Of a DNA stretch of 64,000 nucleotides, positions 4,558 through 64,000 are shown piece after piece. A model generated the notes under the pieces. That model ran no database searches. It had not been told where the DNA came from and saw nothing but the letters and a program-made list of their open reading frames with translations. The stretch comes from Minisyncoccia bacterium (lineage in GTDB: Bacteria; Patescibacteriota; Minisyncoccia; Phycocordibacterales; PALSA-1337): NCBI GenBank assembly GCA_049997795.1, contig JBEKVT010000002.1, forward strand, positions 129,664-193,663, written 5' to 3'. The translations under genes were made by a program, and so were the position numbers. Every line of letters begins with the position of its first letter. Within the stretch, counting starts at the first letter, position 1.

Positions 4558-6726
<2,169 letters not shown>

Positions 6727-12142: not shown

Positions 12143-12169
12143 GGCTGAATTGTAGCAGAGAATCGGCGA

Positions 12170-13809: not shown

Positions 13810-13945
13810 CGGTACACGCATTATAACACGCATCGCACCAAGCAAGTATCGGGTTCGGGGACACGGATATTTTCCTGCCGGAAAATTCCTCGTGCTCGCG
13901 CCAGTCGCGCCCGCAAGGTCCCCTTACCCGACACTTGCTTGGAGC

Positions 13946-22881: not shown

Positions 22882-24927
22882 ATGCGCCGCCACATGATCA
22901 TCGCCTCAGTCGCCGCCGGAGCCCTCATCGTCGGTCCTCTTCTCGTCCTGGCCGACTGGACCGCCGCCCCGGCCAGCCCGCCTTCCAGCAACGCCAGCGC
23001 TCCTTTGAACGTGAGCAGCACGGACCAGGCCAAGGCTGGCGGCCTTCAAGTGGCTTCTTTCATTTCCACTGGCGGCGCGGAAATAGGGAGCGTATCAGGA
23101 CTCTTGGGCGTCGGTATCAGTCCGAGCTACAAGCTCGACGTCTTGGGCGACATCAACTACACCGGCACCTTCTACCATAACGGCACAGCAGTCTCCTTCG
23201 GCGGCAGCCAGTGGACGACTACGGGTTCTGACATCTATTACAATACCGGCAAGGTTGGCATCGGAACGACGGGGCCAACTTATCCACTTGATGTTCAATC
23301 AAGTACAGGAAATGCCGTGATCAGGGCAAAAAGTACCGCTACCGCTGGCCAATCTTTTATTTTGATAGACCGGGCCACTATTTCTTCGGGAAATGCGGCA
23401 TCGGTTGGTTGGTTGACAAATGGTACATATGATTGGGGGCTTGGAACCTCACAGGGGTCTGCTGGTTCGAGCGACTGGAGCCTCTATAATTATGGGACTT
23501 CAGGCAACGCCATCACTGTTCTAAAGTCGAACAGCAACGTCGGCATCGGAACGGTGAGCCCAGGGTATAAACTGGAAGTCAACGGCAACACGAAGATCGA
23601 TACTGATTTGTATTTATTTAATACGGTATTAAATCCTGCCTCGGGATTTTCAAACCAGAGGGGGGCAGGCTTTAATTCTGCTACCGGAGCATTCGAAGTT
23701 GCAGCGAATAACGTTTCTCCTCTAACGGTAGGCAGATTTGGTGGTACTGGTTCGTTGATTAATTTCAGATACGCAGGCACGAGTATGGGAGATATTTCAA
23801 CTGACGGCACAAATTTGTCTATTATGCCTACCGGCTATGTCGGCATCGGGACGGTGAGCCCGGGGTATAAACTGGAAGTTTATGGGGGTGGTGTGAAAAT
23901 AAACGGCGGTGATCTTTACATTGCTAACACTGCCGCCCAAACAGCCACACAGCTCATCAGCTACAGTAACGCAAACAGTCTCTGGTTGATCCAGCCGACC
24001 ACGCAAAACCTTGTTCTCGCCGATAGCTTAAGTTGGGACCGCAGTATGTCTATTCAATACACTGCCGGCACAACAGGAGCAGGTGCCGGACAGTTGATCA
24101 TCGGGCAAATCAGTAAAAACGCCGGTACTTACACTCATGGGATCACATCTCTGTACACTAATGGTCTGGAAAGAATGAGGATCGATGCTAGCGGCCTTGT
24201 TGACATTGGGATGACCGGAGGAGATCAGAAACTAAACGTTAACGGTCAAATACACGTTTATAATGGCTCAAGCGTGAGCGCTGGCTACGTCTACAGCGAC
24301 AGCTCCGGCTTTGGTTTGTTGAACAATAATGGGAGCTGGATTTCCCGTACTCCGCTTGGCTCAACGGATACTTACTTCAGCACTACCGTCAGCATCAACT
24401 CGAGCAACCCGCTCTACTTCAACACCTACGGCGGCGGCTGGTACATGGTTGACAGCACTTATATAAGAGCGTACAACGATAAATATGTCTATACGGGTGG
24501 CATGATAGAGTCGGGTTCCAGCATGTATTCTCCGATCTACTACGACCTCAACAACAGCGGCTACTATCTCGATCCCGCCAGCACATCCAACCTCAATATC
24601 GTATACGCCCAGGTCTACTACTATTCGGACGCCAATCTGAAAAAGAACGTGGAGTCGCTGTCTTCGGCCGATTCGCTCAAAAAGATCATGGCCCTCGATC
24701 CGGTGACATTCGAATGGAAAGACTCGTCTCGCGGTACGGGTACGAACCTCGGCCTCATAGCCCAGGACGTGGAAAAGGTCCTGCCCGAGGCGGTCCACAC
24801 CGGAAAGGACGGAAAGGCTATAGACCTCGAAGGCTTGTCGGCGTCCATCATATCCGCCATGCAAGAGCAGCAGAAAGAGATAGACGCCCTGACGGCGAGA
24901 GTTAAGGCGCTCGAGGCCAGGCAATAA
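22882..24927 (+). CDS. Large secreted tail-fibre-like protein with a C-terminal intramolecular-chaperone (peptidase S74, endosialidase-chaperone) domain
   Basis: Signal peptide. Repeated 'VGIGT(T/V)SPGYKLEV' modules, with 50-bp near-identical DNA repeats at 23538 and 23838. The C-terminus reads 'LDPVTFEWKDS...GLIAQDVEKVLPEAV...IDLEGLSASIISAMQEQQKEIDAL...LEARQ'. Confidence 0.7.
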   Translation: MRRHMIIASVAAGALIVGPLLVLADWTAAPASPPSSNASAPLNVSSTDQAKAGGLQVASFISTGGAEIGSVSGLLGVGISPSYKLDVLGDINYTGTFYHNGTAVSFGGSQWTTTGSDIYYNTGKVGIGTTGPTYPLDVQSSTGNAVIRAKSTATAGQSFILIDRATISSGNAASVGWLTNGTYDWGLGTSQGSAGSSDWSLYNYGTSGNAITVLKSNSNVGIGTVSPGYKLEVNGNTKIDTDLYLFNTVLNPASGFSNQRGAGFNSATGAFEVAANNVSPLTVGRFGGTGSLINFRYAGTSMGDISTDGTNLSIMPTGYVGIGTVSPGYKLEVYGGGVKINGGDLYIANTAAQTATQLISYSNANSLWLIQPTTQNLVLADSLSWDRSMSIQYTAGTTGAGAGQLIIGQISKNAGTYTHGITSLYTNGLERMRIDASGLVDIGMTGGDQKLNVNGQIHVYNGSSVSAGYVYSDSSGFGLLNNNGSWISRTPLGSTDTYFSTTVSINSSNPLYFNTYGGGWYMVDSTYIRAYNDKYVYTGGMIESGSSMYSPIYYDLNNSGYYLDPASTSNLNIVYAQVYYYSDANLKKNVESLSSADSLKKIMALDPVTFEWKDSSRGTGTNLGLIAQDVEKVLPEAVHTGKDGKAIDLEGLSASIISAMQEQQKEIDALTARVKALEARQ

Positions 24928-24948
24928 AAGGGACAAGGAATAAGGAAG

Positions 24949-25914
24949 ATGAAAGACTTCTTCAAAAAACCGCTTTCCGAGACCGCTCTTATCGTCATCG
25001 CTCTTGTCGCAGGCGCCGGCATCGTCTATGCCGCCGCCAACAGCTTCAGCGCCCCGGGAAGCGGCGCCCAGACTTCGATCACCACGAACTTCGGCTGCCA
25101 GAAGGTAACGAACAACACCGGCTCCACCCTCTTCGTGCCAGCCAACACGTCGGCCGAGTGGAATTCCTTCTTGAACCATCTCCCCTCCGGGGTGACCATC
25201 TCTGCCTGCTGCGCCGGCAATTACGGCCAGACGTGCTACTCGGCTTACAACGACTGCGGCCAGAGGAATTCCAGCACTTATGACTGTTCCGGAAACTGCC
25301 CGGCCACCACTCCCGCCGATCCCTCATACTACGGCCAGACGTGCTACTCTAGCTATAACGACTGCAGTCAGAGGAACTCCGGAACGTATAACTGCAGCGA
25401 TGTCTGTTCGGCTTCGACGCCAGCCGATCCAAGTTACTACAACACCAGCTGTTCAGTGACATCGCCACAGAACTCTTGCGGCCAGACTCAGCAATGTGGA
25501 GGTACCTATAATTGTGCTGATACATGCGTCACTGGGACTTGCAATGCTCCTTCCAATAGCGGCTGTCCGATATACGGCTGCACTGACTCGAATGCCTTCA
25601 ACTACAACTCGGGCGCCAATACCAACGACGGCTCGTGCCATTACAACGGCTGCTACACGGTCTACTACGATCTGTATACATTCGGGTACTATGGAGGCGA
25701 TGCTATAGACATCTGTCGCGATAACGTGTATGGCCCGGACAGCTCCGGTCAGTGGCTTGGAACTTGCTCTGGCATCTCGACATGTACGAATGATGCGGCC
25801 TCATACAGTAATAATCTCAGTCTCCCCCACTATAACCAATGTGATGACTGGTCAACAAACCAAAGCGGTGTTGGCATTATCACTTCAGTCGACACTCCGT
25901 ATTCCTGCAATTAG
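24949..25914 (+). CDS. Secreted Cys-rich protein with internal tandem repeats
   Basis: N-terminal TM/signal. About 120-bp tandem DNA repeats encode 'YYGQTCYS.YNDC.QRNS.TY.CS..C.A.TPADPSYY'. There are more than 30 Cys. Confidence 0.55.
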   Translation: MKDFFKKPLSETALIVIALVAGAGIVYAAANSFSAPGSGAQTSITTNFGCQKVTNNTGSTLFVPANTSAEWNSFLNHLPSGVTISACCAGNYGQTCYSAYNDCGQRNSSTYDCSGNCPATTPADPSYYGQTCYSSYNDCSQRNSGTYNCSDVCSASTPADPSYYNTSCSVTSPQNSCGQTQQCGGTYNCADTCVTGTCNAPSNSGCPIYGCTDSNAFNYNSGANTNDGSCHYNGCYTVYYDLYTFGYYGGDAIDICRDNVYGPDSSGQWLGTCSGISTCTNDAASYSNNLSLPHYNQCDDWSTNQSGVGIITSVDTPYSCN

Positions 25915-52204: not shown

Positions 52205-54529
52205 CTACACGATCTCGCACACTCCCGCCACGCAGGCAAGCTCTTTCCTCAGGTCGGTCTCGTTCTGCTTCTCGTAAGTGATGATCTTCGAATAGTCGAC
52301 GTGCTCCAGGCGCTTCGAGAGCTCCTTGTACGTCTTCTCGTCGATGGCTTCGTAAGGCGCGAGCTTGTAGATGTGGTCTTCGCGCGGCAGGAACGACAGG
52401 CCGCCGACGATATCCCAATTCTTGTAGACCCAGTTGGCCACCTCTATCCACTCGCCGTTCCCCACGGAGATGGTCGCCGAAGGATTGTGCTCGCAGTAAT
52501 TCAGCTTGACCATCTTCCAGTGCTCGAGCTGCTCCAGGGCGGTGATGTCGTCCTTGAAGATGGAGCCGGCCGGGGCCTTGACCGGGAATTCGAGGACGTA
52601 GGTCGTGGCGCTCCCTTCGGTCTGGCCCACCTCCGGATGGAACGGCACGCCCTGGTCCTTCAGCATCTTGAAGAGAGTGTCGGTGGCGGCGATCCGGATG
52701 CGGCGGATGTAGTACTTGGAGTGGCGCGGGTGGACGCCGGACGAGCAGTCGACGGTCTGGGACAGGCTGCCGGAAGGCTTGACGCAGGTGATGCAGGTCG
52801 ACTCGTTCACGCCGAAGCGCTTGGCGAACTCGCGGTTCGTCTTCAGGGCCTCGGCCTTGAGCTTCCTCAGGACCTCGGGCCTCCTCGCGGCCGGCGAATC
52901 CCACTGACCCGTGAGAGAGACGCCGAGCAGGCGCTCGCGCTCGCAGCGCTCCTTCCATTCCTTCGAGAGGTACGGGAAATGCGTCAGTATCGACTGGTAG
53001 GTGCCGAGGATGGTGGCTATCCTCACCTTCCGGAGCAGGGTCTTCTCCGTATCTTCGACGCGGCAGACGACCTCGGACAGATTGCAGAACTGCTTGGGCT
53101 GGAGGATGATCTCGGCGCATGGGTTAGTGCCTATCTGGCCGACGATCTTGGTGCCGGAGGCATCGAAATAGCCCTTGTACTCCCTCAAGACCTTGAGGCG
53201 GCGCTCCGGCAGGGTCCTCGCGAGCGAGCCGCGGTTGAATATGCCCCGTTCGCCGGAGCGGCTCTCTATCAAGGACATCCATTCCTTCAGGAATTCCTCG
53301 TTGGTCGGCTTGCTCATGTAGACGGCCGAGTTGTTGGCCAGCATGCGGTGCGGATGGGTCAGGTAAAAAGCCCCCCTCTTGGCGTCGCGGATCTCCTGGT
53401 CGTCGAGATTGGACAGGGAGATCATGGCGCTCCTCCGGACGCCGCCAGCCACCACGCAGTCGCCGATCATGCAGATGATGTCGTGGAGATCTATCGGATG
53501 GAGCCTCCTGCCCTGGCGCGCCAGCATGACCTCGCGAGTGAACGAGAGCAATCTCTGGAGCGGAGCCGGACCGGAAGCCTTGCCGCCCATGGTCTTCAGG
53601 CGCGAGCCCTCTGGACGGACGGCGGAGAAATCAAATTCGATGTCCTTGCCGGCGGCCCAGGCCTTCATGCCGACAACGAGCGAGTCGGCCCAGCCTTCCT
53701 TGCTGTCGTCGATCACGTGCTTGGGCAATTTGACGCCGGTCTGCACCATGATCTGCGGGAACTTCTCGGTGTTGGCGCTCTCGACGGACCAGCCGGCCCC
53801 GGTGCCGCACATGGAGATGTACATGATCTCGGCGAGGTCCTGGAAAGATTCGGGAGCGGTGAACGAGCAGTTGTAAGCGCAGACGTTGGTGGCGCGGGCC
53901 GCCTTGCCGGCGAATTGGAGGAGCCGCATCGAGGGCATGGCCTCGTGATTCAGGATGGCCTCGCGGACTTCCTTGTACTCGGCGTCGGAGAGCTTCTTGC
54001 CGAGGTTCTCGCGCATGAAGTCCACGTAGCGGTCGACGGTCTCGATCCAGGTCTCCCGCCGGCTCTCGGAATCTATCCAGCGCGAGTAGGTGCGGTAATA
54101 GACGAATTCGCCAAGGGCGTTCCGGAAATATTTCTTGGAATCGGCGGCGAGCTTGCGGACGTATTCGGGCGCTTCGAGGCCTTCGGCCCGGATCTTGGCG
54201 CGCTCGTCGCGGTAGATGACGTAGTGCTTGGCGGTCTTGACGAAGTCGGAGCGCATCAATTCCTGCTCGACGATGTCCTGGACGCCCTCGACGGTCGGCA
54301 CGAAGTTGGAGAATTTGCGCTTGATGCGGACGAGTTCGGCCAGGATCTGGCCGGCGATCATCCGGGCGTCTTCGAGCGACCCTTCATGCACCGTATTCAT
54401 GCCCTTCCAGACGGCGTTGACGATCTTTTCCACGTCGAACGGCACGATCCTGCCGTCTCTCTTTATGATCGTCGGGATGACGACTGTTTTGGCCGCTTGT
54501 CCTGAAGCGGATCTCTTCTTTGGGGGCAT
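52205..54529 (-). CDS. nrdJ: Ribonucleotide reductase large subunit with an N-terminal ATP-cone; probably class II (B12-dependent) because no nrdB is adjacent
   Basis: ATP-cone 'VIKRDGRIVPFDVEKIVNAV'. RNR 10-stranded barrel motifs ('NPCAEIIL', 'CNLSEV'). C-terminal CxxxxC. 774 aa. Confidence 0.8.
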   Translation of the reverse strand: MPPKKRSASGQAAKTVVIPTIIKRDGRIVPFDVEKIVNAVWKGMNTVHEGSLEDARMIAGQILAELVRIKRKFSNFVPTVEGVQDIVEQELMRSDFVKTAKHYVIYRDERAKIRAEGLEAPEYVRKLAADSKKYFRNALGEFVYYRTYSRWIDSESRRETWIETVDRYVDFMRENLGKKLSDAEYKEVREAILNHEAMPSMRLLQFAGKAARATNVCAYNCSFTAPESFQDLAEIMYISMCGTGAGWSVESANTEKFPQIMVQTGVKLPKHVIDDSKEGWADSLVVGMKAWAAGKDIEFDFSAVRPEGSRLKTMGGKASGPAPLQRLLSFTREVMLARQGRRLHPIDLHDIICMIGDCVVAGGVRRSAMISLSNLDDQEIRDAKRGAFYLTHPHRMLANNSAVYMSKPTNEEFLKEWMSLIESRSGERGIFNRGSLARTLPERRLKVLREYKGYFDASGTKIVGQIGTNPCAEIILQPKQFCNLSEVVCRVEDTEKTLLRKVRIATILGTYQSILTHFPYLSKEWKERCERERLLGVSLTGQWDSPAARRPEVLRKLKAEALKTNREFAKRFGVNESTCITCVKPSGSLSQTVDCSSGVHPRHSKYYIRRIRIAATDTLFKMLKDQGVPFHPEVGQTEGSATTYVLEFPVKAPAGSIFKDDITALEQLEHWKMVKLNYCEHNPSATISVGNGEWIEVANWVYKNWDIVGGLSFLPREDHIYKLAPYEAIDEKTYKELSKRLEHVDYSKIITYEKQNETDLRKELACVAGVCEIV

Positions 54530-55741: not shown

Positions 55742-56365
55742 TCAATTTATGATCTGCCCTTTGTTCGCCAAGTCCGTCTCCGTGTCGGCTTCTTTCTCGC
55801 CCTCCACGACCTGCACGCCGATCTTGCGCTGGAGCATGAGCCGGATCTCGTCGGCCGTCTCCTTGTCGATCGGCTCGAGGACGATGTCCGTCTCGTTGTC
55901 CTCAGTCTTCTCTTCGTGCCCGGCCGAGTCTATGACGACTCTCGAGGTGCCGGTCAGCCGGTGCAGGAGGCTCCGTTCGACGTCCACGTCCTGCATCTGG
56001 CGGTACGGGATCGAGACGATGGTGGTGCTCACTATGCCCTGCTTCAGCTTCAGGTCGAATTCCTCGAAGGTGAAGGTGTAGTTGGCGTACTGGAGCTTGG
56101 CGATGACGAGGCCGACGATGCAGGCGAGGAGCGCCACGATGATAAGACCCATGATGAGGCCTCCCACTGTCCCGGAAACGGCTGCCGTAGCCCCTTTGGC
56201 GCCGCCTATTATAAGGACGCCGGCCAGGAACCCCGATATTGGGGCGCTCAAAACCATCAAAACGACGGCTATAAGCAATATAACCAGCCCCGCCGTCATT
56301 TTCCGCGATGCCAGGAGCAGGTATGCCTTCCGTCCCAGCCGCTGTTCTTGGTTTAAGGGGATCAT
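55742..56365 (-). CDS. Bacterial PH-domain (bPH_2 / YdbS-YdbT-like) membrane protein
   Basis: Two TM helices, then 'TFTFEEFDLKLKQGIVSTTIVSIPYRQMQDVDVERSLLHRLTG', the bPH_2 signature. Confidence 0.6.
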   Translation of the reverse strand: MIPLNQEQRLGRKAYLLLASRKMTAGLVILLIAVVLMVLSAPISGFLAGVLIIGGAKGATAAVSGTVGGLIMGLIIVALLACIVGLVIAKLQYANYTFTFEEFDLKLKQGIVSTTIVSIPYRQMQDVDVERSLLHRLTGTSRVVIDSAGHEEKTEDNETDIVLEPIDKETADEIRLMLQRKIGVQVVEGEKEADTETDLANKGQIIN

Positions 56366-56380
56366 AGGATGATTATACTA

Positions 56381-56842
56381 CTAAGTTTCCAGAGTAGAAA
56401 TAAGCTCTTTCCAATAGTTCATGACGTTTTTAAAAATTTTAATAATGAACAAGGTTGAGCCATCGATTTTCAGTGTTAAGAATGACGTGGTGATAGCCGA
56501 AAGACCTGAGGCAAAACCATCCTCTTTTTGTGCAACTTGAATATCATTATGATGGCCGTCTGAATGTTTTGTGTGAGTTGCTAATTCCTGGATGATTTTA
56601 AGATCAGGGCATTTTGAAAAAATAAAATTGTGGAAGTCATTTATATCTTTTATTCCAAATTTAGATTGTAATCTTGCTTCCTCAGATGACCAAACCCAGT
56701 CTTTCTGGTGCCAGAGAATAATAGAACATGTTAAAGCTTCCTTTACATCCAACTGGCTTTTTAAAAAATCTTCGTAATTAGGTACTAGAATATTTTCAAA
56801 ATAATCTCTCGCCGTATTTATTCCAAAGGTAGCGGTGCTCAT
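56381..56842 (-). CDS. Hypothetical 153-aa protein encoded in a low-GC (~35%) segment
   Basis: The composition drops abruptly relative to the flanking sequence. No recognisable motifs ('ARDYFENILVPNYEDFLKS...'). Confidence 0.5.
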   Translation of the reverse strand: MSTATFGINTARDYFENILVPNYEDFLKSQLDVKEALTCSIILWHQKDWVWSSEEARLQSKFGIKDINDFHNFIFSKCPDLKIIQELATHTKHSDGHHNDIQVAQKEDGFASGLSAITTSFLTLKIDGSTLFIIKIFKNVMNYWKELISTLET

Positions 56843-56894
56843 GTTTATTATTAGCTGCGCGGTACGATGTTGGAGCTTATTTTACCAAGGGGGT

Positions 56895-57206
56895 TTAATC
56901 ACCCTTGTAATTTTCCAGCTTCTTTTTCCATTTCTCAACTTCTTTCCAAAAGCCACAAACGCTGGTGAACAAAATCACAAAGAAAATCGTTATGGGGATA
57001 AAAATTATTTTCAAGACAATGATTCTCCATTCTGTGAGATGATTAAAGCCGTTATAGGTATACCATGCAGTAATGATTAATCCGCTGATCCAAAGACAAA
57101 ATAGCATCCAAGCATATCTGATTATCTCTACAAGTATTTTCATTAGACGTCTTATCATTTCTATGTTTGTGAGACTTGGACTCGAACTAATCAAATCTTC
57201 TAACAA
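56895..57206 (-). CDS. Small 2-TM membrane protein in the low-GC segment (track start is TTG; an internal ATG gives an 87-aa protein)
   Basis: Two hydrophobic helices 'AWMLFCLWISGLIITAW' and 'IIVLKIIFIPITIFFVILF', then a Lys-rich tail. Confidence 0.45.
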   Translation of the reverse strand: MLEDLISSSPSLTNIEMIRRLMKILVEIIRYAWMLFCLWISGLIITAWYTYNGFNHLTEWRIIVLKIIFIPITIFFVILFTSVCGFWKEVEKWKKKLENYKGD

Positions 57207-57404
57207 AACTATTTCTGGCGGCAGTTTTTACTTGAAGTTCGAACTTTTTTCGCCGAAAATCCGTGCCCATGAATCATTGCGCCTTCGCTCCGCTTGGCGC
57301 TCGGAAAAGGGCGGACGGCGGCCGGGGGTGTGGGGGTTCCTCTTCGTTTTCGCGCGCCGCCCTGCTGATTTTTTCGGGGGCGATTCGGAACAAGATCCAA
57401 GTTA

Positions 57405-57437
57405 CCTGTGGCTCATTTGGTGGATTTGAGCCACAGG
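57405..57437. repeat. Perfect 11-bp-stem hairpin 'CCTGTGGCTCA-tttggtggatt-TGAGCCACAGG'
   Basis: Read directly. It is one of two inverted copies of the same palindromic element. Confidence 0.55.
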
Positions 57438-57632
57438 CATTTTAGCACAGGTTTGGGAGGCTCGAAGCGGCCCACTTCCGCTTCAGATAGAGTTCTGTAG
57501 CGCGTTCGGCGTCAGTCCGTGTGGCTCCATTGCATTTCGCCGCACCGACATTCCGCCAGACGCGGATGGCAGTTGATGGAAGAAGCGGAAGTCGGCCGCT
57601 TCTCGGCGGAAGTTGGTGGTGAATCTGAAACA

Positions 57633-57665
57633 CATGTGGCTCATTTCCACCATATGAGCCACAAC
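57633..57665. repeat. Second copy, inverted, of the TGTGGCTCA hairpin element: 'TGTGGCTCAT-ttccaccat-ATGAGCCACA'
   Basis: The loop is the complement of the first copy's loop. It lies immediately 3' of the wHTH gene and may serve as its terminator. Confidence 0.5.
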
Positions 57666-57670
57666 TGGGT

Positions 57671-58228
57671 TTAGTGAAGAAACTGGTACTTGGCATCGCG
57701 CGGGTTTCCCGCGCGTGCAAGGTGGCCTTGCTGGACTAACTTGACCAGATATCTCGTTGCTGTGGCGCTGGAGATGTGCAAGGTCTTCTGCACATCTTCG
57801 TTGGCTATGATTTTCTTTTTCTGTGCCAACAGAATGATCTTGTCGAGCTTCTTCTGTTTGTTTGACTGGATTTTTGCATTCGCTTTGGCGAGCAGAGCGC
57901 GGATGAAGCCGGTCTGGTCTGGTTGCGCCGGCGATTGCGCCTGTGGCACTTGCGGAGTCGGTGCCGCCGGCGCGGACACAGGAGGTGGCGCAGGTTGTAA
58001 TGGTTCAGAAATCGGCTCAGACGCAGGTTCTGTTGTTGGCTCATCTGTCGCAGGCACTGTCATCTGATCTTCGACTGGAGCAACTGGCACAGATTCAGTA
58101 GGTTCAGAAATTGGTTCAGAAACCGGAGTGTTATCAGTTACCATTTCTACTTGAGCAGGTTCTGGCGCAGGAACCTCTGAAACCACCGGTTCAGCTACTG
58201 GCGCGCTTTGAGCATTTTCATCATCCAT
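57671..58228 (-). CDS. Winged-helix DNA-binding protein with a long acidic Pro/Glu-rich N-terminal region
   Basis: The C-terminus 'IIANEDVQKTLHISSATATRYLVKLVQQGHLARAGNPRDAKYQF' is wHTH-like. The N-terminus holds 'PVSEPISEP' repeats. Confidence 0.5.
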   Translation of the reverse strand: MDDENAQSAPVAEPVVSEVPAPEPAQVEMVTDNTPVSEPISEPTESVPVAPVEDQMTVPATDEPTTEPASEPISEPLQPAPPPVSAPAAPTPQVPQAQSPAQPDQTGFIRALLAKANAKIQSNKQKKLDKIILLAQKKKIIANEDVQKTLHISSATATRYLVKLVQQGHLARAGNPRDAKYQFLH

Positions 58229-58301
58229 GGAGATATTTTAGCATCAAAATAGGTCTATTTTTGAGCCTCCATAGAGCCACCGCATGAGCATGCTATTGGG
58301 C

Positions 58302-58330
58302 TTGCAATTTACATGGAGCTATGGTATAAT
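58302..58330 (+). promoter_or_regulatory. Sigma-70-type promoter (TTGCAA - 17 nt - TATAAT) upstream of the DMT transporter
   Basis: Perfect -10 and near-consensus -35 with a 17-nt spacer. A GGAGG RBS lies at 58381. Confidence 0.5.
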
Positions 58331-58390
58331 ACTAGAGTAGTTTCAAATAGTGATTTTTAACAATAAACCCTTAACCCTACGGAGGTCCAA

Positions 58391-58801
58391 ATGGATGGTT
58401 TACAAATCAAGGCCCTACTAGCTGGCCTATTCTTCGGATTGTGGCCGCTACTTATGAACAAGAGCGGACTCAATGGCAATGTTTCGGCGATGGCATTCGC
58501 TGGTCTGGTGTTGTTATTCGTCTCCCCTTTTGCCTTGAGCAACATCGGAGATCTTTCCAACACCAAATGGCTCATGGTCGTCGGAGCAGGCTTGTTCGGT
58601 GCCCTCGGCGTCATGTCCTTCAACGGCATGCTTGCCAAGGCAACCCCGCAGGCGGTGAGCACGCTCTTTGTTCTGATGATTGTGGTGCAAACAGCCGTTC
58701 CGGCTGTGTATCAAGTCATCATGAACGGTGGGCTTTCGCTCACCAAAGGATTAGGGTTTGCGCTCGCGGCGATCGCCGCGGTGCTACTCGTCAAGTCCTG
58801 A
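58391..58801 (+). CDS. Small 4-TM EamA/DMT-superfamily (SMR-like) transporter
   Basis: 136 aa, four hydrophobic helices. A terminator-like 'GCGAGGCGGGTTTTCTTTTTG' follows at ~58835-58860. Confidence 0.55.
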   Translation: MDGLQIKALLAGLFFGLWPLLMNKSGLNGNVSAMAFAGLVLLFVSPFALSNIGDLSNTKWLMVVGAGLFGALGVMSFNGMLAKATPQAVSTLFVLMIVVQTAVPAVYQVIMNGGLSLTKGLGFALAAIAAVLLVKS

Positions 58802-58914
58802 AAAGAGTTTACACGCCCGCTTTGCACAGAAAATCTGTCGCGAGGCGGGTTTTCTTTTTGGGCTGATAGGCAAGCACCTTGGAAACGAGGTATTTCTATG
58901 TTATCGTTTTATGA

Positions 58915-59631
58915 ATGAAAAACCGTAACTTTTTCTTTCAACAATACGACAAAATCAATTGGGCGAATCAAGACAAGACGAATCTGAACGTCGCTGTATA
59001 CCAGCACTTGATCGAGAACATCATCTCCAAGAAAGATGGGCCTTTTAAGCTATTCGATGTGGGCTCTGGTATAGGATTATTTATCCGACTGCTCAAGGAA
59101 AAGTTCGGCAATTCTGTCCGCATCGATGGCTGTGAGCCGTCGAAAAAGAGCTATGACTATTTTATGAAGAGTGACATAGATAAGACTAACGTCACGATAT
59201 ATCCTGAAACGTTCCAAAACATCAAAACAAATGAGAAATTTGATTTCATAACCGCAATATATGTCTTTCCGCATTTTATAGAAGCGGATTTAGGCAAGGT
59301 CGCACAAAAAATATCCAGCATGCTCAATGAAGCTGGAAAGTTGATCATCGTGGTCTCCAATGAAGAATATTTACGAAATAAGTTAGAGACTAAAAAAGAT
59401 CTCTTTATCGAAAAGAATGTAATCGAATTTAAGGGCAAGGAGTATAAGGAATATCTGCACTATGTCGAGATTCCTGATATGGGAACTGTCATAGATTACG
59501 ATAGAGAAGAAGATTACTATAAAGATTTGCTGGAGGATAACGGGTTGAGATTTGTGAAAAAGGACAAGATAAACAGCGACGAATACATCTGCACCATATT
59601 CACTTTTGAGAAAGGCGAACTCACTAAGTGA
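58915..59631 (+). CDS. Class I SAM-dependent methyltransferase (low GC, ~37%)
   Basis: Motif I 'LFDVGSGIGLF'. Motif II-like 'FDFITAIYVFPHF'. Confidence 0.65.
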   Translation: MKNRNFFFQQYDKINWANQDKTNLNVAVYQHLIENIISKKDGPFKLFDVGSGIGLFIRLLKEKFGNSVRIDGCEPSKKSYDYFMKSDIDKTNVTIYPETFQNIKTNEKFDFITAIYVFPHFIEADLGKVAQKISSMLNEAGKLIIVVSNEEYLRNKLETKKDLFIEKNVIEFKGKEYKEYLHYVEIPDMGTVIDYDREEDYYKDLLEDNGLRFVKKDKINSDEYICTIFTFEKGELTK

Positions 59632-59678
59632 TCGCAAATAACGGCACTGATTCTAGCCCGTGGCAAAAGTAGCGGAAT

Positions 59679-60230
59679 ATGCTAATGTTTTATGCAATGA
59701 AATACCATCTAGGGGAAGCATACGATTTCTATAAGAAATTCATATACAACAAGGAAAAGCAGACTCTGCTCGCAGAACGCAATCTTCACGTCGCCGGAAG
59801 CGTTCCGTCCGTGGACTGGGAGCTGTTCGGCGCTATTCTCACCGGCGATGACGGCAAGGGCGGCTATGGCTCAGATCTCAAGCGTCACGAGATCAAATCG
59901 TCCGTAAGCGGCGCGAGCTTCGAATATCAATATCACTTGAACGGCGGCATGAAGAAGCTCGCCGACGACATGAAAGTCGACCACATCTTCATCTCATACA
60001 GCCCAGACTACAGAGACATCGAGGCGCGAGTCATCAAGGGAACCGTCCTGAAAAAGACCTTCAAGGGCTGGGAGCCGGGATTGATTGAGAACTACGCAGG
60101 CCCGAACAGGAAACAACGCTATCGCCGTAGTATCTCGTACGGGACGGTCAAGTCCGACGGCAAGCTTATACTGAAAATTGAACAGGGCGAGCTCGTCCAA
60201 GACGAAGCGTCTGTTGCAACGAAGAAATAG
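59679..60230 (+). CDS. Putative Type II restriction endonuclease (PD-(D/E)xK fold), convergent with the C5-MTase
   Basis: 'GSDLKRHEIKS' fits a D-x(n)-E-x-K catalytic core. 183 aa. Its 3' end overlaps the methyltransferase 3' end by 65 nt. Confidence 0.45.
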   Translation: MLMFYAMKYHLGEAYDFYKKFIYNKEKQTLLAERNLHVAGSVPSVDWELFGAILTGDDGKGGYGSDLKRHEIKSSVSGASFEYQYHLNGGMKKLADDMKVDHIFISYSPDYRDIEARVIKGTVLKKTFKGWEPGLIENYAGPNRKQRYRRSISYGTVKSDGKLILKIEQGELVQDEASVATKK

Positions 60231-61377
60231 AATTCAGATAGTGATTGCCTAGCCACTCCAAGACTGGCACGCAGACGGCATCGCCGAAGCCGAAAAGGAC
60301 ATCGTTCAAGGAAAGATCTGGATTTATCTTGAATTCATCAGCACCCATCAATCTGGCGGCCTCTTTTCCGTTTATCAGGCGCGCATCAATCTTTCCCCGG
60401 CCAGCTCTCACGATTATCTGCCTTGCACTTCCTCCTTTCGGGGTACGCAAACAGCCAGCGATTCCATCTGTACGCAACTCGGCAGTCGAGAGCGACTTAC
60501 CGTTGCGAACCCTCATCCGGCGAAATACAGTGAAATAGGAATATCTCGATTCTTTCTTTTTTGCTTCCAGAATGATCTTATGCCTGTCGTGCATTTGGTC
60601 ATACAGATATTCGGTTCTTTCTTTTTCCCACCATTCCGCCGAGGGATCGACTATCTCTTCGAGAGAAATCTGCCGTTGCGGCAGGTTCGGCAAGGAATGA
60701 AAATACCATTTCAGATCGGCGTTAGCGGAGATATATTCGGCTATCTTCTCCGGTCGAGCATTTGATGACCCGAGATTATGTTGTTGCGACAATATGTCAT
60801 CGGCCAGGCCAGATACGTTCACGGCCGAACTGTGCACGCCGACTACGAATATCCTTACGCGGCTTTGCGGCACGAAGTTCGCACCGTTGATCATGATGAG
60901 GTCCACCAGATATCCCAGCTCATTGAGTGAGCTAAGGACGGCTCTCAAGTCCTTCCCTTGATTTGACGAAAGCAGGCCTTCGACATTCTCCACGAGAACG
61001 AACGGGGGTTTCCCATCTCCGCGCTCCGCACGCATCTCCTTCAGAATGCGTAGGAAGTGCCAAAATGCCGACGACTCTCCGGCGTGTATTCCTCCACGCG
61101 CTCCGGCGACCGAAAGATCAGTGCAAGGAAACGAGGCATGGGCCAGCATCACGTCAGGAACGTCCTTTCCTTTAACGTCTGCGATGTCGCTTACGTGGTA
61201 GTGGCCTTGGCCGAAATTATTCTCATACGCGGCCGCCTTCGCTTTCTCATAGTCAAGGGCATAGACCGTTTTCCAGCCGGCTTTCTCAAGTCCCATCGTG
61301 ACAAGACCGATGCCGGCGAAAAAATCAGCGACTGTCTTTTCTTTCATCTTCGGTTTTGTAATGCTCATTGATAACAT
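60166..61377 (-). CDS. DNA (cytosine-5)-methyltransferase
   Basis: Motif I 'DFFAGIGL', motif IV 'FPCTDLS', motif VI 'ENVEGL', plus a C-terminal target-recognition domain. Confidence 0.9.
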   Translation of the reverse strand: MLSMSITKPKMKEKTVADFFAGIGLVTMGLEKAGWKTVYALDYEKAKAAAYENNFGQGHYHVSDIADVKGKDVPDVMLAHASFPCTDLSVAGARGGIHAGESSAFWHFLRILKEMRAERGDGKPPFVLVENVEGLLSSNQGKDLRAVLSSLNELGYLVDLIMINGANFVPQSRVRIFVVGVHSSAVNVSGLADDILSQQHNLGSSNARPEKIAEYISANADLKWYFHSLPNLPQRQISLEEIVDPSAEWWEKERTEYLYDQMHDRHKIILEAKKKESRYSYFTVFRRMRVRNGKSLSTAELRTDGIAGCLRTPKGGSARQIIVRAGRGKIDARLINGKEAARLMGADEFKINPDLSLNDVLFGFGDAVCVPVLEWLGNHYLNSISSLQQTLRLGRARPVQFSV

Positions 61378-61483
61378 TTTATCAGATAATGATTGAAATG
61401 GATAAGGTGCTTATATTATAGCCGATGCGTAAAGGCCGTCAAGGGTTATTGCACTATTTCAAAGAGTATGCTATCATACGACT

Positions 61484-62155
61484 ATGATGCATAAAATACA
61501 GGAAAAACTGCTAATGCTCTCGAAAGAGAGGAACCTCGGCCAGCACTCGTTGCGCCAGATCGGCGAGATGGTAGGCGGAGCCTCCCCGCAGACTATAAAG
61601 CACCACCTCAATCAGCTTGAAAAGAAAGGGCTGATACGGGTGGACAAGGCAAAGGGCCTCGTTGAAAAGACCAAGCCCGGCTGGGCAGAGACATCGATGA
61701 AGAATGCCCGGCTCCTGGTCCTTCCGATACTCGGCGGCGCGAATGCTGGTCCGGCCGTCATAAATGCCGAAGAGAACATCGAGGGCTATCTGCGAGTATC
61801 GAACAGCATCGTCGGCAGGAAAAGCGGGGACGGGCTTTTCGCCCTTCGCGTAAGCGGCCCGTCCATGAACAAGGCCTCGTTCGATGGAAAGACGATCGAG
61901 GACGGCGACTACATCATCGTAGACGGCAAGGATCGTTCGCCGCGCGACGGAGATATCGTTCTTTCCGTAATAGACCGTATGGCGAATGTGAAGCGTTTCC
62001 ATTTCGACAAGGACAGCGGGCAAATCGCCCTTGTGTCGGAATCGACGCAGAACTTCCCCCCGATCTACATGCATCAGAGCGACGACTACATGATCAACGG
62101 CAAGGTCGTGCAGGTCATTAAAAAGCCGAAAACTAACTCTCAACCCTCGTCATGA
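61484..62155 (+). CDS. lexA: LexA-like repressor (N-terminal wHTH plus C-terminal S24 autopeptidase)
   Basis: Collinear with LexA. wHTH 'LRQIGEMVGGASPQTIKHHLNQLEKKGLI'. Cleavage region 'LPILGGANAGP'. 'LRVSGPSMNK' holds the catalytic Ser and 'VKRF' the Lys. A promoter-like TTGCAC-17-TATCAT and the palindrome ATCATAcgacTATGAT lie upstream. Confidence 0.8.
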   Translation: MMHKIQEKLLMLSKERNLGQHSLRQIGEMVGGASPQTIKHHLNQLEKKGLIRVDKAKGLVEKTKPGWAETSMKNARLLVLPILGGANAGPAVINAEENIEGYLRVSNSIVGRKSGDGLFALRVSGPSMNKASFDGKTIEDGDYIIVDGKDRSPRDGDIVLSVIDRMANVKRFHFDKDSGQIALVSESTQNFPPIYMHQSDDYMINGKVVQVIKKPKTNSQPSS

Positions 62156-62658
62156 TTTCAATATATTCAGCGCTCGGAACGATCTCGACCTTCGACGGCG
62201 TCGTTCATGTAATCATCGGACTCATCGTCGCTTCCGCATTTCTAGCCGCATTTTCTGTTTTTTTCTTCAAAAAAGAGATCCGGCTATTCCTGAATCGCCG
62301 ACGGCCGATAAAGATATTCATGGCTGATGGCGTGAATATGGGAGCGGAGGTGGAAATGCTTCGTAAAAGCAAGCTATTCAAAATAGAGGAACCGACGACC
62401 GACCATAGGCAATGCGACGGCATTGGAAACCACAGCCTTATTATCATCGGCTATAAACGCCAGATGGCCGGACTCTCCGATATCGTCAACGCCGCGCGCA
62501 CAGCAAAGATTCCGGTAATCGTTTACGCAAAGGAACAGCTCGAGGAAACCGATAAGAGCCTCTTGAACAGCTATTCCTGGCATTCAGTCTGCAATTTCCC
62601 TCTCAAGCTCATGAATGACGTGTTTACCATATTATCAACGTTCCCTAAAATGAAATAA
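62152..62658 (+). CDS. Single-TM protein with a Rossmann/CheY-like (possibly SLOG/TIR-like) cytoplasmic domain
   Basis: Its ATGA overlaps the lexA-like stop. N-terminal TM, then alternating beta/alpha elements 'IKIFMADG...SLIIIGY...IPVIVYAKE'. Confidence 0.45.
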   Translation: MISIYSALGTISTFDGVVHVIIGLIVASAFLAAFSVFFFKKEIRLFLNRRRPIKIFMADGVNMGAEVEMLRKSKLFKIEEPTTDHRQCDGIGNHSLIIIGYKRQMAGLSDIVNAARTAKIPVIVYAKEQLEETDKSLLNSYSWHSVCNFPLKLMNDVFTILSTFPKMK

Positions 62659-62661
62659 GCC

Positions 62662-63669
62662 ATGACAACATCAGAATATTTCGAGAAGCTCCTAGACCGA
62701 GTCAATCTGAAGATCGACGATGACGAACGCAAAATGATAGAAGAAAAACATAACGGCTTTCGTGAGATGTTGCTCGCCAAGCTGCCCTTGAAGGACGATT
62801 TTCTTACAGGCTCATATCGCAGACATACGATTATCAAGCCCAGAAAAGACGGAGACAAATTCGACGTCGATGTTTTCGTGGCTTTTGATAAAGAGGATTA
62901 TGGCGAGAAAGAGCTCGCTGAACTGCGAGGCGAGGTAGCCGAGGCCTTGAACGCTATCAAGGATGAAAATCCTGAGCTTGGCATCACGAATGTAAACGAT
63001 AGCCAACGGCGATCTGTGTGCGTCGAATTCGGCAACAACTTCCGAATAGATGTCGTGCCCTCGATCGAGATCGAAAAGGACAAGCTCTACAAGATATTCG
63101 ATCGACGGACTCTCAAAGCAATCAAATCAAACCCAAAATTGCACGCGGCTCTTTTGAGCGAAGCGAATGAGAAGACCGGCGGCAGGCTTGTGCCCGTCAT
63201 CAAAATCCTGAAAGGATGGAAGCGCGTCAAGTGCGATTATGTTAAGTCCTTTCACATCGAGATGCTGGCATTGGACATATTGGGCAACGCTGAAATATCG
63301 TCATATGCCGAAGGGGTCGCCAAATTCTTTTCCGATGCCGGATCAAAGCTTCAGAAGGCTTCCCTGGCAGACCCAGCCAACAAGGAACACTATATCGACG
63401 CATATCTGGACGATGACGGGAATCGTCAACGGCTTCTTGGCATTATCGCGACCGAGGATGACGCTGCGTGTCGAGCGCTCGATGCCGAGAAAAGGGAAAA
63501 CGGAGATCCGGTCAAAGAGTGGGAATCTATATTTGAAAACGCTGATACGGATATCGCCAAAGCCATAGAGAGCGGCAGCTTTGCCATGGGTATCGGAGGC
63601 ATCCGGGTGGGCGGAACAACAAGCCATGGCAGATCAATCAAATCACCAAATTCCTGGAGAGCCGACTAA
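62662..63669 (+). CDS. Minimal nucleotidyltransferase of the SMODS / cGAS-DncV-like (CD-NTase) type
   Basis: 'GSYRRHTIIKPRKDGDKFDVDVFVAF' (GS...[DE]hD NTase core) and a downstream 'FRIDVVPS' third acidic residue. A helical C-terminal domain. It starts 3 nt after the preceding gene. Confidence 0.55.
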   Translation: MTTSEYFEKLLDRVNLKIDDDERKMIEEKHNGFREMLLAKLPLKDDFLTGSYRRHTIIKPRKDGDKFDVDVFVAFDKEDYGEKELAELRGEVAEALNAIKDENPELGITNVNDSQRRSVCVEFGNNFRIDVVPSIEIEKDKLYKIFDRRTLKAIKSNPKLHAALLSEANEKTGGRLVPVIKILKGWKRVKCDYVKSFHIEMLALDILGNAEISSYAEGVAKFFSDAGSKLQKASLADPANKEHYIDAYLDDDGNRQRLLGIIATEDDAACRALDAEKRENGDPVKEWESIFENADTDIAKAIESGSFAMGIGGIRVGGTTSHGRSIKSPNSWRAD

Positions 63670-64000
63670 GCAATGGCATGAACTGCTTCCGGAACGGTTC
63701 AAAGAGGAAGCCCTGCTGATGCAGGAGGACTTTCCTGATTTTGCCATTCATAATGAGCCAGGAAAAAATGTTTATTGGACTGGAGAAGCGAAAGCGCTTC
63801 GCCCTGACGGTTCGACTCTGAAATCTCTTCACATAAAGATCGAGTGCGCTCCGAATTATCCCAAAATATTTCCGCGAGTATCTGACACGGCCGGCGTACT
63901 TAACCTTAAAACATGCCCGCATCTTTCCAAATTTGACGGAGACAAATTCGCCTTTTGTTATGGCAATCGTTTGGATGCGCAACTCGATTTTGAAGGAAAC
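63626..64000 (+). CDS. Ubiquitin-conjugating E2-like (UBC-fold) protein, cut off by the window end; possibly the N-terminus of a Cap2-like E2(-E1)
   Basis: A complete ORF-track entry is absent because the gene runs off the window. My translation 'VYWTGEAK..DGSTLKSLHIKIECAPNYPKIFPRVSD...CPHLSKFDGDKFAFCYG' matches the UBC pattern (YP..PP.v.F ... HPN ... G.iC). It overlaps the NTase 3' end by 44 nt in another frame. Confidence 0.45.
   Translation, partial: MADQSNHQIPGEPTKQWHELLPERFKEEALLMQEDFPDFAIHNEPGKNVYWTGEAKALRPDGSTLKSLHIKIECAPNYPKIFPRVSDTAGVLNLKTCPHLSKFDGDKFAFCYGNRLDAQLDFEGN

Follow-up and report, generated by a model that had tools for sequence, protein, structure and literature searches.

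The window analysed here, a 64,000-nt stretch of a patescibacterial contig, ends in ~7.6 kb of DNA that stands apart in composition from what precedes it, and this raises the questions of whether the segment was acquired horizontally, by what means it arrived and where it stops. Our analysis indicates that this island is very probably a large serine recombinase (LSR) element at tRNA-Ser(GGA) accompanied by an older insert, with defence cargo, three core sites and modules that appear to flip.

Composition of the island

GC is 0.476 across positions 56381-64000, against 0.588 across 1-56380 (z = -7.6 relative to all 7.6-kb background windows, for which the mean is 0.587, the s.d. 0.015 and the minimum 0.557). 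The tetranucleotide L1 distance from island to background is 0.406, 2.3x the background maximum of 0.176, and GC3 spans 0.32-0.71 in island genes compared with 0.68-0.88 in flanking housekeeping genes, such that the GC, tetranucleotide and codon-usage shifts agree. The GC fall named in the original prediction is real, although it sets out from ~59% and not from 63% (values of 0.61-0.64 occur only at 49-54 kb), and the upstream sequence is less uniform than had been stated, GC falling to 0.50-0.53 at 22.9-25.9 kb and again at 55.3-55.75 kb. The mosaic of sub-blocks and the left boundary at 56380 had been drawn accurately, and the two blocks reported at ~35% GC, 56381-57206 (0.347) and 58915-59631 (0.379), both fall below the lowest 800-nt background window (0.479).

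A probable LSR element at the end of tRNA-Ser(GGA)

Public same-strain contigs extend the locus past the window, where we use the coordinates of L002. The element measures ~9.6 kb, comprising window positions 57208-64000 plus ~2.75 kb past the window, and ends with a 538-aa LSR abutting tRNA-Ser(GGA), followed by HtpX-LemA-GroEL; past the tRNA, GC is back at 0.60-0.64. The features that define its limits are as follows.

56381..57207, minus strand: block A, GC 0.35, between bPH_2 and attL, outside the recombinase element
56381-56842, minus strand: u153, orphan ORF in block A
56895-57206, minus strand: u103, orphan ORF in block A, predicted membrane protein
57218..57221, plus strand: attL crossover core GCGG (CCGC on the tRNA strand), from three-site alignments
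L002 11960-12090: attP-like sequence, an internal, inverted attP copy where repeats X′ and Y meet
L002 12533-14149, ~1.2 kb past the window end: LSR, 538 aa
L002 14083-14168: tRNA-Ser(GGA), abutting repeat Y′ (attR)

The LSR carries the Resolvase (PF00239), Recombinase (PF07508) and Zn_ribbon (PF13408) domains in that order, together with the catalytic motif YARKST, and its best PHROG is the integrase family PHROG 95 (1.7e-78), a DNA-invertase family matching at 3.9e-16 only. A small serine invertase (~190 aa, with a C-terminal HTH and a Fis enhancer) was considered and rejected on this size and this best match. The far boundary thus lies past 64000, as had been anticipated, and inspection of the downstream sequence yielded the recombinase gene there. 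The statement that neither integrase nor attachment site is visible in the window is correct for the LSR, but attL and repeat X do lie inside, at 57208-57382; attL went unrecognised from the window alone because its recognition needs the partner sites.

To the left of the attL core lies ...TATTTCTG, the old 3′ flank of the tRNA (reverse complement CCGCCAGAAATAG), and to its right the element arm CAGTTTTTACTTGAAGTTCGAAC; the 27-nt arm pattern occurs once in the window, with 0 occurrences expected by chance. The CCGC at the tRNA 3′ end is the sole sequence common to attL, attR and the attP-like site, and this 4-nt identity block includes the presumed crossover dinucleotide, the sites being deduced from junctions. 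CCGC+CAGAAATAG is kept at attL, and the inferred attB, ...ACCCTCCGC followed by CAGAAATAG, restores the encoded CCA end, as in the unoccupied tRNA-Ser genes of relatives. The LSR very probably inserted the element by site-specific recombination at the very 3′ end of tRNA-Ser(GGA), beside HtpX-LemA-GroEL, in the chromosome of a tiny-genome member of the Paceibacteria (Patescibacteria/CPR).

Block A provides the chromosomal arm of attL and is found in every same-strain contig reaching that far. Its ORFs have no match in Pfam, PADLOC, NCBIfam or PHROG, and the block shows no similarity to any fetched relative. It is probably a low-GC insert of its own, older than the element, and originally made up the flank downstream of the tRNA. 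Since block A lies outside the recombinase element, the island is composite.

In a synteny comparison, the flanks GroEL-HtpX-tRNA-Ser...DUF192-RNR are kept in several related Paceibacteria (e.g. L059, L076, L070 and L063), the cargo genes occur at this locus in 0/80 related genomes, and the same hotspot is taken by LSR elements with different cargo in at least eight lineages. An ancient, lineage-specific low-GC region held by selection, with no foreign insertion, which had been named beforehand as the outcome that would refute the prediction, would fit the presence of the island in every same-strain contig examined and the intermediate GC3 of some cargo (LexA-like gene, 0.71; u183, 0.67), but is made highly improbable by the exact att sites found next to a recombinase at the 3′ end of a tRNA, by the absence of the cargo from those 80 genomes and by the different cargo at the same site in other lineages. 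The LSR, the tRNA-Ser(GGA) end and the cargo missing from relatives instead support the original prediction of a horizontally acquired defence island.

Backbone and cargo genes

Between the attL arm and the LSR region, the element encodes the following genes.

57671..58228, minus strand: 185-aa protein with Pro/Glu-rich N-terminus and C-terminal winged helix (MarR/DUF977/AbiEi-like; weak wHTH matches)
58391..58801, plus strand: half-size EamA/DMT-like membrane protein, 136 aa (PF00892, E 1.5e-4, under gathering score)
58915..59631, plus strand: class I SAM-dependent methyltransferase, 238 aa, GC 0.38 (Methyltransf_23/25/11/12; PADLOC mad2 6e-10; PHROG 4752)
59679..60230, plus strand: u183, orphan ORF of 183 aa, overlapping the convergent C5-methyltransferase gene by 65 nt
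60166..61377, minus strand: DNA cytosine-5 methyltransferase (type II R-M methylase), 403 aa (PF00145 4e-47; PADLOC MTase_II 7.5e-104; TIGR00675)
61484..62155, plus strand: LexA-like repressor (wHTH + S24 self-cleaving peptidase), 223 aa (PF00717, PF01726; PHROG 4 transcriptional repressor)
62152..62658, plus strand: single-TM CBASS effector, 168 aa (PADLOC C3a59 7e-26, 'Effector 1TM' 9e-8)
62662..63669, plus strand: CD-NTase (CBASS cyclase), 335 aa (PF18144 SMODS 1.3e-19; PADLOC Cyclase 4.7e-54)
63626..64000, plus strand: 5′ part of the E2-like CBASS regulator gene, 284 aa with C-terminal SEC-C zinc motif (full gene L002 10965-11819; PADLOC E2 1.6e-18; PF02810)

The 185-aa wHTH protein, whose homologs (44-63%) adjoin the left X repeat in L097, L104, L117 and L125, belongs to the backbone of the element and may act as a regulator or as a directionality factor; no gene of the element could be identified as a recombination directionality factor. 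The 183-aa ORF, which has no match in Pfam, PADLOC, NCBIfam, PHROGs or PDB sequences, is by position alone a candidate for the cognate restriction endonuclease of the C5-methyltransferase. CD-NTase, effector and E2-like regulator lie in a single operon, the arrangement of an E2-only (type II short) CBASS. What had been called a lexA operon is not housekeeping lexA, as the protein scores 98.8 bits against TIGR00498, below the equivalog cut-off of 110.95; the gene does encode a repressor, which we call LexA-like because LexA_DNA_bind and S24 domains are present, and it is translationally coupled to the CBASS operon, its stop codon overlapping the effector start codon (ATGA). The cargo is of defence type, with the C5-methylase and its candidate nuclease, the SAM-methyltransferase and the LexA-like/CBASS operon, and also takes in the half-size EamA protein.

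An LSR together with a LexA/CI-like S24 repressor is typical of temperate phages (PHROG 95, PHROG 4), and one homologous locus is in IMG/VR, as would be expected if this were a degraded prophage or phage satellite and not an autonomous integrative island. We consider this unlikely, as the 9.6 kb contain no capsid, terminase, portal, tail, replication or packaging match (Pfam, PADLOC, NCBIfam, PHROG), members of the family at 1.5-8 kb hold defence or accessory cargo only, and relatives number 201 in metagenomes versus 1/18 among viral-collection candidates.

Nested inverted repeats and a family of related elements

Within this integrative element, one pair of inverted repeats of ~190 bp (X and X′) brackets the cargo, and a second pair of ~200 bp (Y and Y′) brackets the LSR gene.

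57208..57382, plus strand: repeat X, left inverted repeat, P′-type att arm
57458..57605, plus strand: segment s1, direct repeat with 81-82% identity to the LSR leader r1 (L002 12257-12435)
L002 11841-12030 (about window-equivalent 64502-64691): X′, inverted partner of X

The order is attL, X, cargo, inverted X′, internal site, Y, LSR gene, inverted Y′ and tRNA (attR), giving three core sites: attL, the internal site and attR. X and X′ (182-192 bp) are 97-99% identical; in the window copy of X, 17 nt have been deleted after 57336, and with them the 3′ half of a GC-rich hairpin. The LSR reading frame crosses the att core and continues into the tRNA, and an inverted duplicate of the 3′ end of the gene lies upstream of it. 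Segment s1 holds two 21-nt palindromes, GAAGCGG-N7-CCGCTTC, at 57464-57484 and 57582-57602; in 29/63 family loci the motif recurs at ~-270 and ~-110 relative to the start of the LSR.

The element belongs to a large and apparently undescribed family. The layout recurs in ~70 of 84 homologous loci, where Y/Y′ are present with a median identity of 98%; a tRNA adjoins the LSR 3′ end in ~50, and in 11 elements X/X′ enclose 1.5-8 kb of cargo, in each case adjoining Y and overlapping it by 4-12 nt. Other members carry mostly defence cargo (MvaI/BcnI, Mrr, N6/N4 and C5 methylases, Vsr, Z1, Schlafen/AlbA_2, Pycsar effector). LSRs across loci with the conserved layout are only 57-91% identical. Repeat arms are ~77-93% identical between elements versus a median of 98% inside one element, and this excess of within-element identity argues for ongoing homogenisation and for selection for the duplication. 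Such retention across divergent LSRs, and such homogenisation, count against a plain LSR genomic island in which the inverted repeats are passive and other orientations are functionless, arising as rare RecA inversions or as assembly mis-joins.

Alternative orientations of the modules

Same-strain contigs carry the cargo in both orientations, with reference and inverted junctions drawn from several samples and alternative junctions seen in both MEGAHIT and JGI assemblies; the contigs with inversions are short-read metagenome assemblies crossing 180-200 bp repeats, of which a minority could be mis-joins. L003 and L192 match at full length to cargo-inverted states only, while L182 and 6 similar contigs have a 185aa-X-Y′ arrangement. 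L005 is the one contig of this strain that bears on the orientation of the LSR module; it fits a doubly inverted integrated state and a circle junction equally well, and no other state. Neither an empty attB nor an unambiguous circle junction was found among ~45 same-strain contigs. Flipped or attP-type states also occur in other, unrelated elements (L112, L115). The wHTH gene is distal to the LSR in all five scorable elements, and therefore one orientation predominates.

We propose that the cargo and LSR modules are flipped either by the LSR or by RecA using the 190-200 bp repeats; excision followed by re-integration via either of two inverted attP copies would be an equivalent route. With the LSR 3′ end duplicated in Y and Y′, the recombinase ORF would stay complete in either state, and flipping may link expression of the LSR to either of the operons that read outward. 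Canonical LSRs (phiC31/Bxb1-type) recombine only attP x attB, or attL x attR with a directionality factor, and because of this an LSR-catalysed inversion between attL and the internal site would, to our knowledge, be without precedent. RecA-mediated and LSR-catalysed inversion are equally good sources of the observed orientations.

Passive repeats would agree with the predominance of a single orientation in long contigs and among family members, with alternative junctions confined to ~12 short contigs, and with canonical LSR rules, which for phiC31/Bxb1-type enzymes do not allow attL x attP; the recovery of those junctions from several samples and both assembly sources, and the states of L112 and L115, run against them. 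A plain island of this kind is a possible but doubtful account. The alternative, that members of this Patescibacteria family employ an LSR that uses three core copies both to integrate and to flip the cargo and its own gene, we advance tentatively.

Comparison with known systems

The cargo operon resembles E2-only CBASS in its CD-NTase, E2-like and 1TM effector genes, and differs in the translationally coupled LexA-like S24 repressor that precedes them and in the SEC-C motif of its E2. The described CBASS regulators CapW and CapH/CapP are distinct from such a repressor.

With LSR elements (phiC31, Bxb1, SPbeta SprA, skin SpoIVCA, SCCmec Ccr, Tn4451 TnpX), the element shares the Resolvase-Recombinase-Zn-ribbon order, short att sites whose identity core is tiny and an integrase gene beside attP/attR. 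The LSR elements known to us possess one attP each, and their att arms are not repeated as long inverted copies; also unlike them, the ORF here reads across the att core into the tRNA, with its 3′ end duplicated and inverted upstream.

With tRNA-targeting genomic islands and integrative mobilizable elements that carry defence systems (Islander/TIGER-type islands), the element shares foreign composition at a tRNA 3′ end, a recombinase at one end, att repeats at both ends, R-M and CBASS cargo, and sites that are empty or otherwise filled in relatives. According to the Islander work (PMC4383910), tDNA is usually targeted by tyrosine integrases, whereas the present enzyme is an LSR; its shared core is only 4 nt, at the very tRNA end (discriminator/CCA), an additional attP-like site lies inverted inside the element, and no conjugation or mobilisation genes are found. 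Prochlorococcus tycheposons, as described (bioRxiv 10.1101/2020.12.28.424599), are likewise small, tRNA-targeting elements of streamlined genomes with variable cargo at recurrent hotspots and without conjugative machinery; nested inverted repeats are not part of that description.

Serine-invertase switches (Hin/H segment, Gin/G segment, Cin/C segment of P1 with 0.6-kb inverted repeats, the Min multiple-inversion system, PinQ, PMC12529663) offer the parallel of segments bracketed by inverted repeats with crossover at the repeat borders, a recombinase encoded in or beside the invertible segment, and both orientations coexisting in a population; as in multi-site inversion systems, two adjacent invertible modules have a common middle site. 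Unlike these switches, the element has a 538-aa LSR in place of a ~190-aa invertase, no Fis/enhancer element identified and no swapping of alternative coding ends, and its sites double as chromosomal attachment sites. If the three-core reading is true, the family would combine an integrase island with a multi-site inversion switch, the duplicated LSR 3′ end preserving an intact enzyme in every state, and if the LSR itself catalyses the inversions, it would be a natural LSR operating outside the attP x attB / attL x attR rule.

Composition and extent of the island

The last 7620 bases of the window have a GC content of 0.476, compared with 0.588 for the first 56380, and a sliding window places a sharp fall at about 56380. 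All 7.6-kb background windows stand at or above 0.557 (z = -7.6 for the island), and the two lowest blocks, 56381-57206 (0.347) and 58915-59631 (0.379), lie below the lowest 800-nt background window (0.479). The tetranucleotide and codon-usage checks proposed with the original prediction gave a strand-symmetrised island-to-background distance of 0.406 against a background maximum of 0.176, and a GC3 of 0.32-0.71 in island genes versus 0.68-0.88 in RNR, bPH_2, HtpX, LemA and GroEL. The predicted GC drop is confirmed, including both lowest blocks, but its starting value of ~63% was overstated, the whole window being ~59%; similarly, the upstream composition described as uniform contains mild dips, while the remainder of that observation holds. 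One mild dip (0.51-0.53, window 22882-25914), outside the island, coincides with a 681-aa Gly/Ser/Thr-rich secreted protein whose C-terminal segment looks, by eye, like tail-fibre or intramolecular-chaperone domains; it is followed by a secreted, Cys-rich protein of 321 aa, likewise outside the island.

The locus was extended by exact-protein look-up of the cyclase, which led to same-strain contigs. Two of these, L001 and L002, are 21-kb excerpts of 657-kb contigs that were assembled independently; they agree with each other throughout, and with the window apart from one 17-nt indel. In L002, GC returns to 0.60-0.64 precisely at a tRNA-Ser(GGA) gene, and the island extends over L002 3700-14086, that is, from window 56381 to about window-equivalent 66747 (10.4 kb); its boundary thus lies past 64000, as had been anticipated.

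Genes at the locus, in order (window coordinates where given)
52205-54529, RNR-II, upstream of the island; then DUF192 and a 117-aa ORF
55742-56365, bPH_2 membrane protein, last gene before the low-GC ORFs
After bPH_2, u153 and u103, two orphan low-GC ORFs in block A
185-aa protein with a C-terminal winged helix
After the 185-aa gene, half-size EamA-like membrane protein
After the EamA-like gene, SAM-methyltransferase
59679-60230, orphan 183-aa ORF, convergent with the C5 DNA methyltransferase gene (65-nt overlap)
60166-61377, C5 DNA methyltransferase
61484-62658, LexA-like wHTH/S24 repressor and single-TM CBASS effector genes, with a stop/start overlap ATGA at 62152-62155
After the single-TM CBASS effector, CD-NTase
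E2-like protein with SEC-C motif, truncated by the window end

The overlap between the LexA-like and effector genes suggests that the CBASS operon is under a DNA-damage-type, self-cleaving repressor. A strong -35/-10 match, TTGACG-16-TATAAT (L002 8781-8754), stands upstream of the methylase gene in the region divergent with the LexA-like gene; apart from this, the promoter/terminator scan gave nothing informative. The 183-aa candidate nuclease and both block-A ORFs had no match in Pfam, PADLOC, NCBIfam, PHROGs or PDB sequences.

A large serine recombinase and its deduced attachment sites

The gene past E2 encodes a large serine recombinase (LSR) of 538 aa with Resolvase, Recombinase and Zn_ribbon domains (PHROG 95 integrase, 1.7e-78); the 3' end of this gene overlaps tRNA-Ser(GGA) on the opposite strand. 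Beyond the tRNA come HtpX, LemA, two unknown genes, GroEL and GroES. Self-comparison of L002 identified two pairs of inverted repeats, one around the cargo and one around the LSR gene:

4530-4721, X
11841-12030, X', inverted copy of X
12019-12224, Y
13882-14086, Y', inverted copy of Y

X' meets Y at an internal site, and the junctions and sites were read from a three-junction alignment.

Junctions and attachment sites
Left junction: ...TATTTCTGGCGG joined to CAGTTTTTAC...
Internal junction, reverse complement: ...CACTTTTTTGCGG joined to CAGTTTTTAC...
Right junction: ...CACTTTTTTGCGG joined to AGGGTAAGGGATTCGAACC..., at the tRNA 3' end
attR, tRNA strand: ACCCTCCGC joined to AAAAAAGTG
attL, tRNA strand: AAAACTGCCGC joined to CAGAAATAG
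Internal site, tRNA strand, attP-like (L002 11960-12090): AAAACTGCCGC joined to AAAAAAGTG
Deduced attB, tRNA strand: ACCCTCCGC joined to CAGAAATAG

CCGC is the only sequence common to all sites, and the alignment therefore places attL within the window (core 57218-57221), where no attachment site had been thought to be visible. The deduced attB regains an encoded CCA end, as in the unoccupied tRNA-Ser(GGA) genes of the related loci L059, L070, L032 and L040. A generic genomic repeat or known RNA was rejected as the identity of the repeats, since the 27-nt element arm is unique within the 64-kb window and Rfam matches the tRNA alone.

Block A (56381-57207, 35% GC, two orphan ORFs) sits on the strand of bPH_2, 15 nt upstream of it, and neither the libraries searched nor the fetched loci contain a homolog. 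It is an insert separate from the LSR element, lying outside it and giving the chromosomal arm of attL, and could be what is left of an earlier insertion into this tRNA hotspot.

Over L002 13882-14149 the LSR ORF crosses Y' and the att core and enters the tRNA gene, and an inverted 84-aa copy of its 3' end lies upstream of the gene (L002 11968-12222). In 17 of 17 members examined the ORF is open across Y' and the core into the tRNA, and its last residues therefore vary with the junction, reading ...FLR-RVRDSNPWWVAPHTLSKRAH beside the tRNA and ...FLR-QFLLEVRTFFAENPCP beside X. Codon-position differences show a strong third-position bias in the catalytic core (e.g. 52:28:195) and a weak one in the Y' part (13:8:20); constraint on the Y' part is thus mainly at the DNA level.

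Within Y' is a GC-rich hairpin (L002 13979-14025) whose loop, GGAGGGGTCTGGGGAGGAA, is rich in purines; comparison of L002 with L097, the locus of a 76%-identical LSR, shows compensatory changes at two of its base pairs. A similar hairpin in X has lost its 3' half in the window through the 17-nt deletion: the sequence AAGGTCGCCGGCCGCCC, present in L001 and L002 (L002 4659-4675), is missing at 57336/57337, a difference that reflects either variation between strains or an error of assembly at the hairpin. Next to the left X, a segment s1 shares with the LSR leader, r1, two 21-nt palindromes, GAAGCGG-N7-CCGCTTC:

Window 57464-57484, s1
Window 57582-57602, s1
L002 12263-12283, r1
L002 12412-12432, r1

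The central 7-mers of paired palindromes are complementary to each other, and in 29 of 63 family loci the palindromes keep their positions, about -270 and -110 relative to the LSR start. Operators or kissing hairpins are candidate roles for them, and the 185-aa wHTH protein is plausibly the binder of the operator-like palindromes.

A family of elements at a recurrent tRNA hotspot

LSR homologs number in the thousands, many annotated from Patescibacteria. One that is 84% identical (L095) occupies the same HtpX-adjacent tRNA-Ser(GGA) in another species, and L097, from a host of GC 0.41, repeats the entire layout abutting a tRNA-Ser (X/X' of 216 bp at 99%, Y/Y' of 198 bp at 99%, and s1/r1 direct repeats) with different cargo, namely a Z1/ResIII helicase, an N6/N4 methylase and a SAM-methyltransferase. 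Scanning metagenomes yielded a further 80 loci and IMG/VR one more, and 84 family loci were surveyed. Among those with downstream sequence, an opposite-strand tRNA overlaps the LSR 3' end in ~50, mostly tRNA-Ser (GGA, GCT, CGA, TGA or 'ACT'), with six Gln, one Arg and one Lys. HtpX/LemA/GroEL adjoin the LSR-tRNA pair in at least eight other lineages, and this tRNA is therefore a recurrent hotspot.

Y/Y' bracket the LSR in ~70 of the 84 loci (median identity 98%), and X/X' surround 1.5-8 kb of cargo in 11 elements, Y always being met with a 4-12 nt overlap. Many family contigs start 350-560 nt upstream of the LSR, within Y, which is the signature of an assembly-breaking repeat. Repeats are near-identical within an element, whereas arms are just ~77-93% conserved between elements, which implies that the repeats within each element are still being homogenised.

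Cargo in ten other elements is mainly defensive, comprising MvaI/BcnI and Mrr nucleases, N6/N4 and C5 methylases, Vsr, Z1, Schlafen/AlbA_2-HATPase and a Pycsar effector, alongside TPR, NYN, peptidase and unknown proteins. The 185-aa wHTH gene recurs immediately inside the left X in L097, L104, L117 and L125 and is on that basis backbone, while R-M, CBASS and the LexA-like gene are cargo; its product is a candidate directionality factor. A LexA-like gene also lies near an 89%-identical LSR (P0002) beside different cargo (DUF3800), which had prompted its consideration as backbone; this was dropped because tblastn found no close homolog in the 84 other family loci, and the gene is treated as cargo or subfamily-specific.

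The RNR protein led to 80 species-representative genomes of the Patescibacteria, Paceibacteria/'Taylorbacteria' group (identity at most 83%). Many retain DUF192-RNR, and GroES-GroEL-u232-LemA-HtpX on the other side is also kept in L059, L076, L070, L056, L063, L077 and others; between the two flanks lies tRNA-Ser(GGA) in the same orientation, then 1.3-9 kb of variable DNA. The island cargo genes occur in 0 of the 80. Relatives that keep the flanks thus lack the cargo, the reverse of the shared locus that was to speak against recent acquisition, and with an LSR at a tRNA 3' end the original prediction of a horizontally acquired defence island is right in substance. L040 is the sole related locus with a homolog of the 185-aa wHTH protein (58%), and no LSR was detected in the sequence examined there. 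The 6-9 kb past the syntenic tRNA-Ser(GGA) are also compositionally uneven in L040 (81-3262), L032 (158-8314) and L076 (2915-9440), tracts that could represent elements of another kind, or decayed ones, at this hotspot.

Orientation states and mobility

Same-strain contigs were aligned to the four possible isomers, written S for the cargo module and R for the LSR module with + for reference and - for inverted, and to the circle junction and the empty site. The long contigs, together with L185-L187, back the reference state. Over their full length, L003 (14.8 kb) and L192 agree solely with the cargo-inverted states (E2-X'-block A), and in L182 and six contigs like it 185aa-s1-X runs into Y'. 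S-R+ fits all of these as well as the doubly inverted state does; at the internal site, none of the same-strain contigs seen is specific to S+R-, or to S-R+ as against the doubly inverted state. In L005, 185aa-s1-X-Y' extends into the LSR C-terminus, an arrangement compatible solely with the doubly inverted isomer or the circle junction. Most short same-strain contigs stop within repeat X.

Inversion of the whole element, which gives junctions of the chromosomal flanks A with Y and B with X', was ruled out, as the junctions seen are A with X' and X with Y'; a 2-micron-like amplification circle was likewise discarded, the element having no replication gene. Exactly the doubly inverted isomer would result if a circle integrated by way of the internal, inverted attP and not the junction attP, and two inversions in succession would lead to it too. 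Neither an empty attB nor an unambiguous circle turned up among the contigs retrieved by exact match to the bPH_2, u153, 185-aa and cyclase proteins.

In elements unrelated to the window's strain, L112 (9392-11483) carries tRNA-Ser on the + strand, ~520 nt ahead of Y-LSR, so that its LSR module is flipped, and L115 (1961-1983) has the conserved element arm directly past the LSR ORF, an attP-type junction. Because the orientation evidence comes from short-read assemblies, among which L005 is the one contig of the window's strain that informs on the LSR module, cargo inversion is judged well supported, and the data are suggestive of inversion or excision of the LSR module.

Implications and comparison with known systems

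Patescibacteria/CPR have tiny genomes; to our knowledge, few mobile elements have been recognised in them, and their exchange of defence genes is poorly known. The locus provides a concrete vehicle: small LSR elements at the last bases of tRNA genes, mostly tRNA-Ser, that move R-M, CBASS, Pycsar and other systems among lineages of very different GC. A practical consequence for annotation pipelines is that CPR metagenome assemblies are systematically interrupted by these repeats ~400 nt upstream of the LSR gene. Should the flipping be the work of the recombinase, the family would supply LSR/att sets that are bidirectional by nature and of interest to genome engineers, and it would give a mobile element a new means of phase variation, either of its cargo or of its own mobility.

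Like ordinary genomic islands, this one is foreign DNA that lies at the 3' end of a tRNA gene and carries a recombinase together with defence genes. tDNA targeting is described as usually the work of tyrosine integrases (PMC4383910), whereas here the enzyme is an LSR, the identity core is just 4 nt at the extreme tRNA end, the host is a CPR bacterium, and the att arms are duplicated in inverted form, making the cargo and the LSR gene invertible-segment-like modules with a common middle site. Paired modules and a middle site recall Hin/Gin/Cin/Min-type inversion systems, but the small invertase and enhancer that define those are lacking. The three-site nested inverted-repeat arrangement is not part of the canonical LSR repertoire, and neither the architecture nor the family was described in the literature searched, an absence that does not prove novelty. 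In kind, the island is ordinary; the architectural variant merits follow-up and, if confirmed at read level, its conserved three-site design and the natural isomerisation of defence cargo would come as a surprise to specialists.
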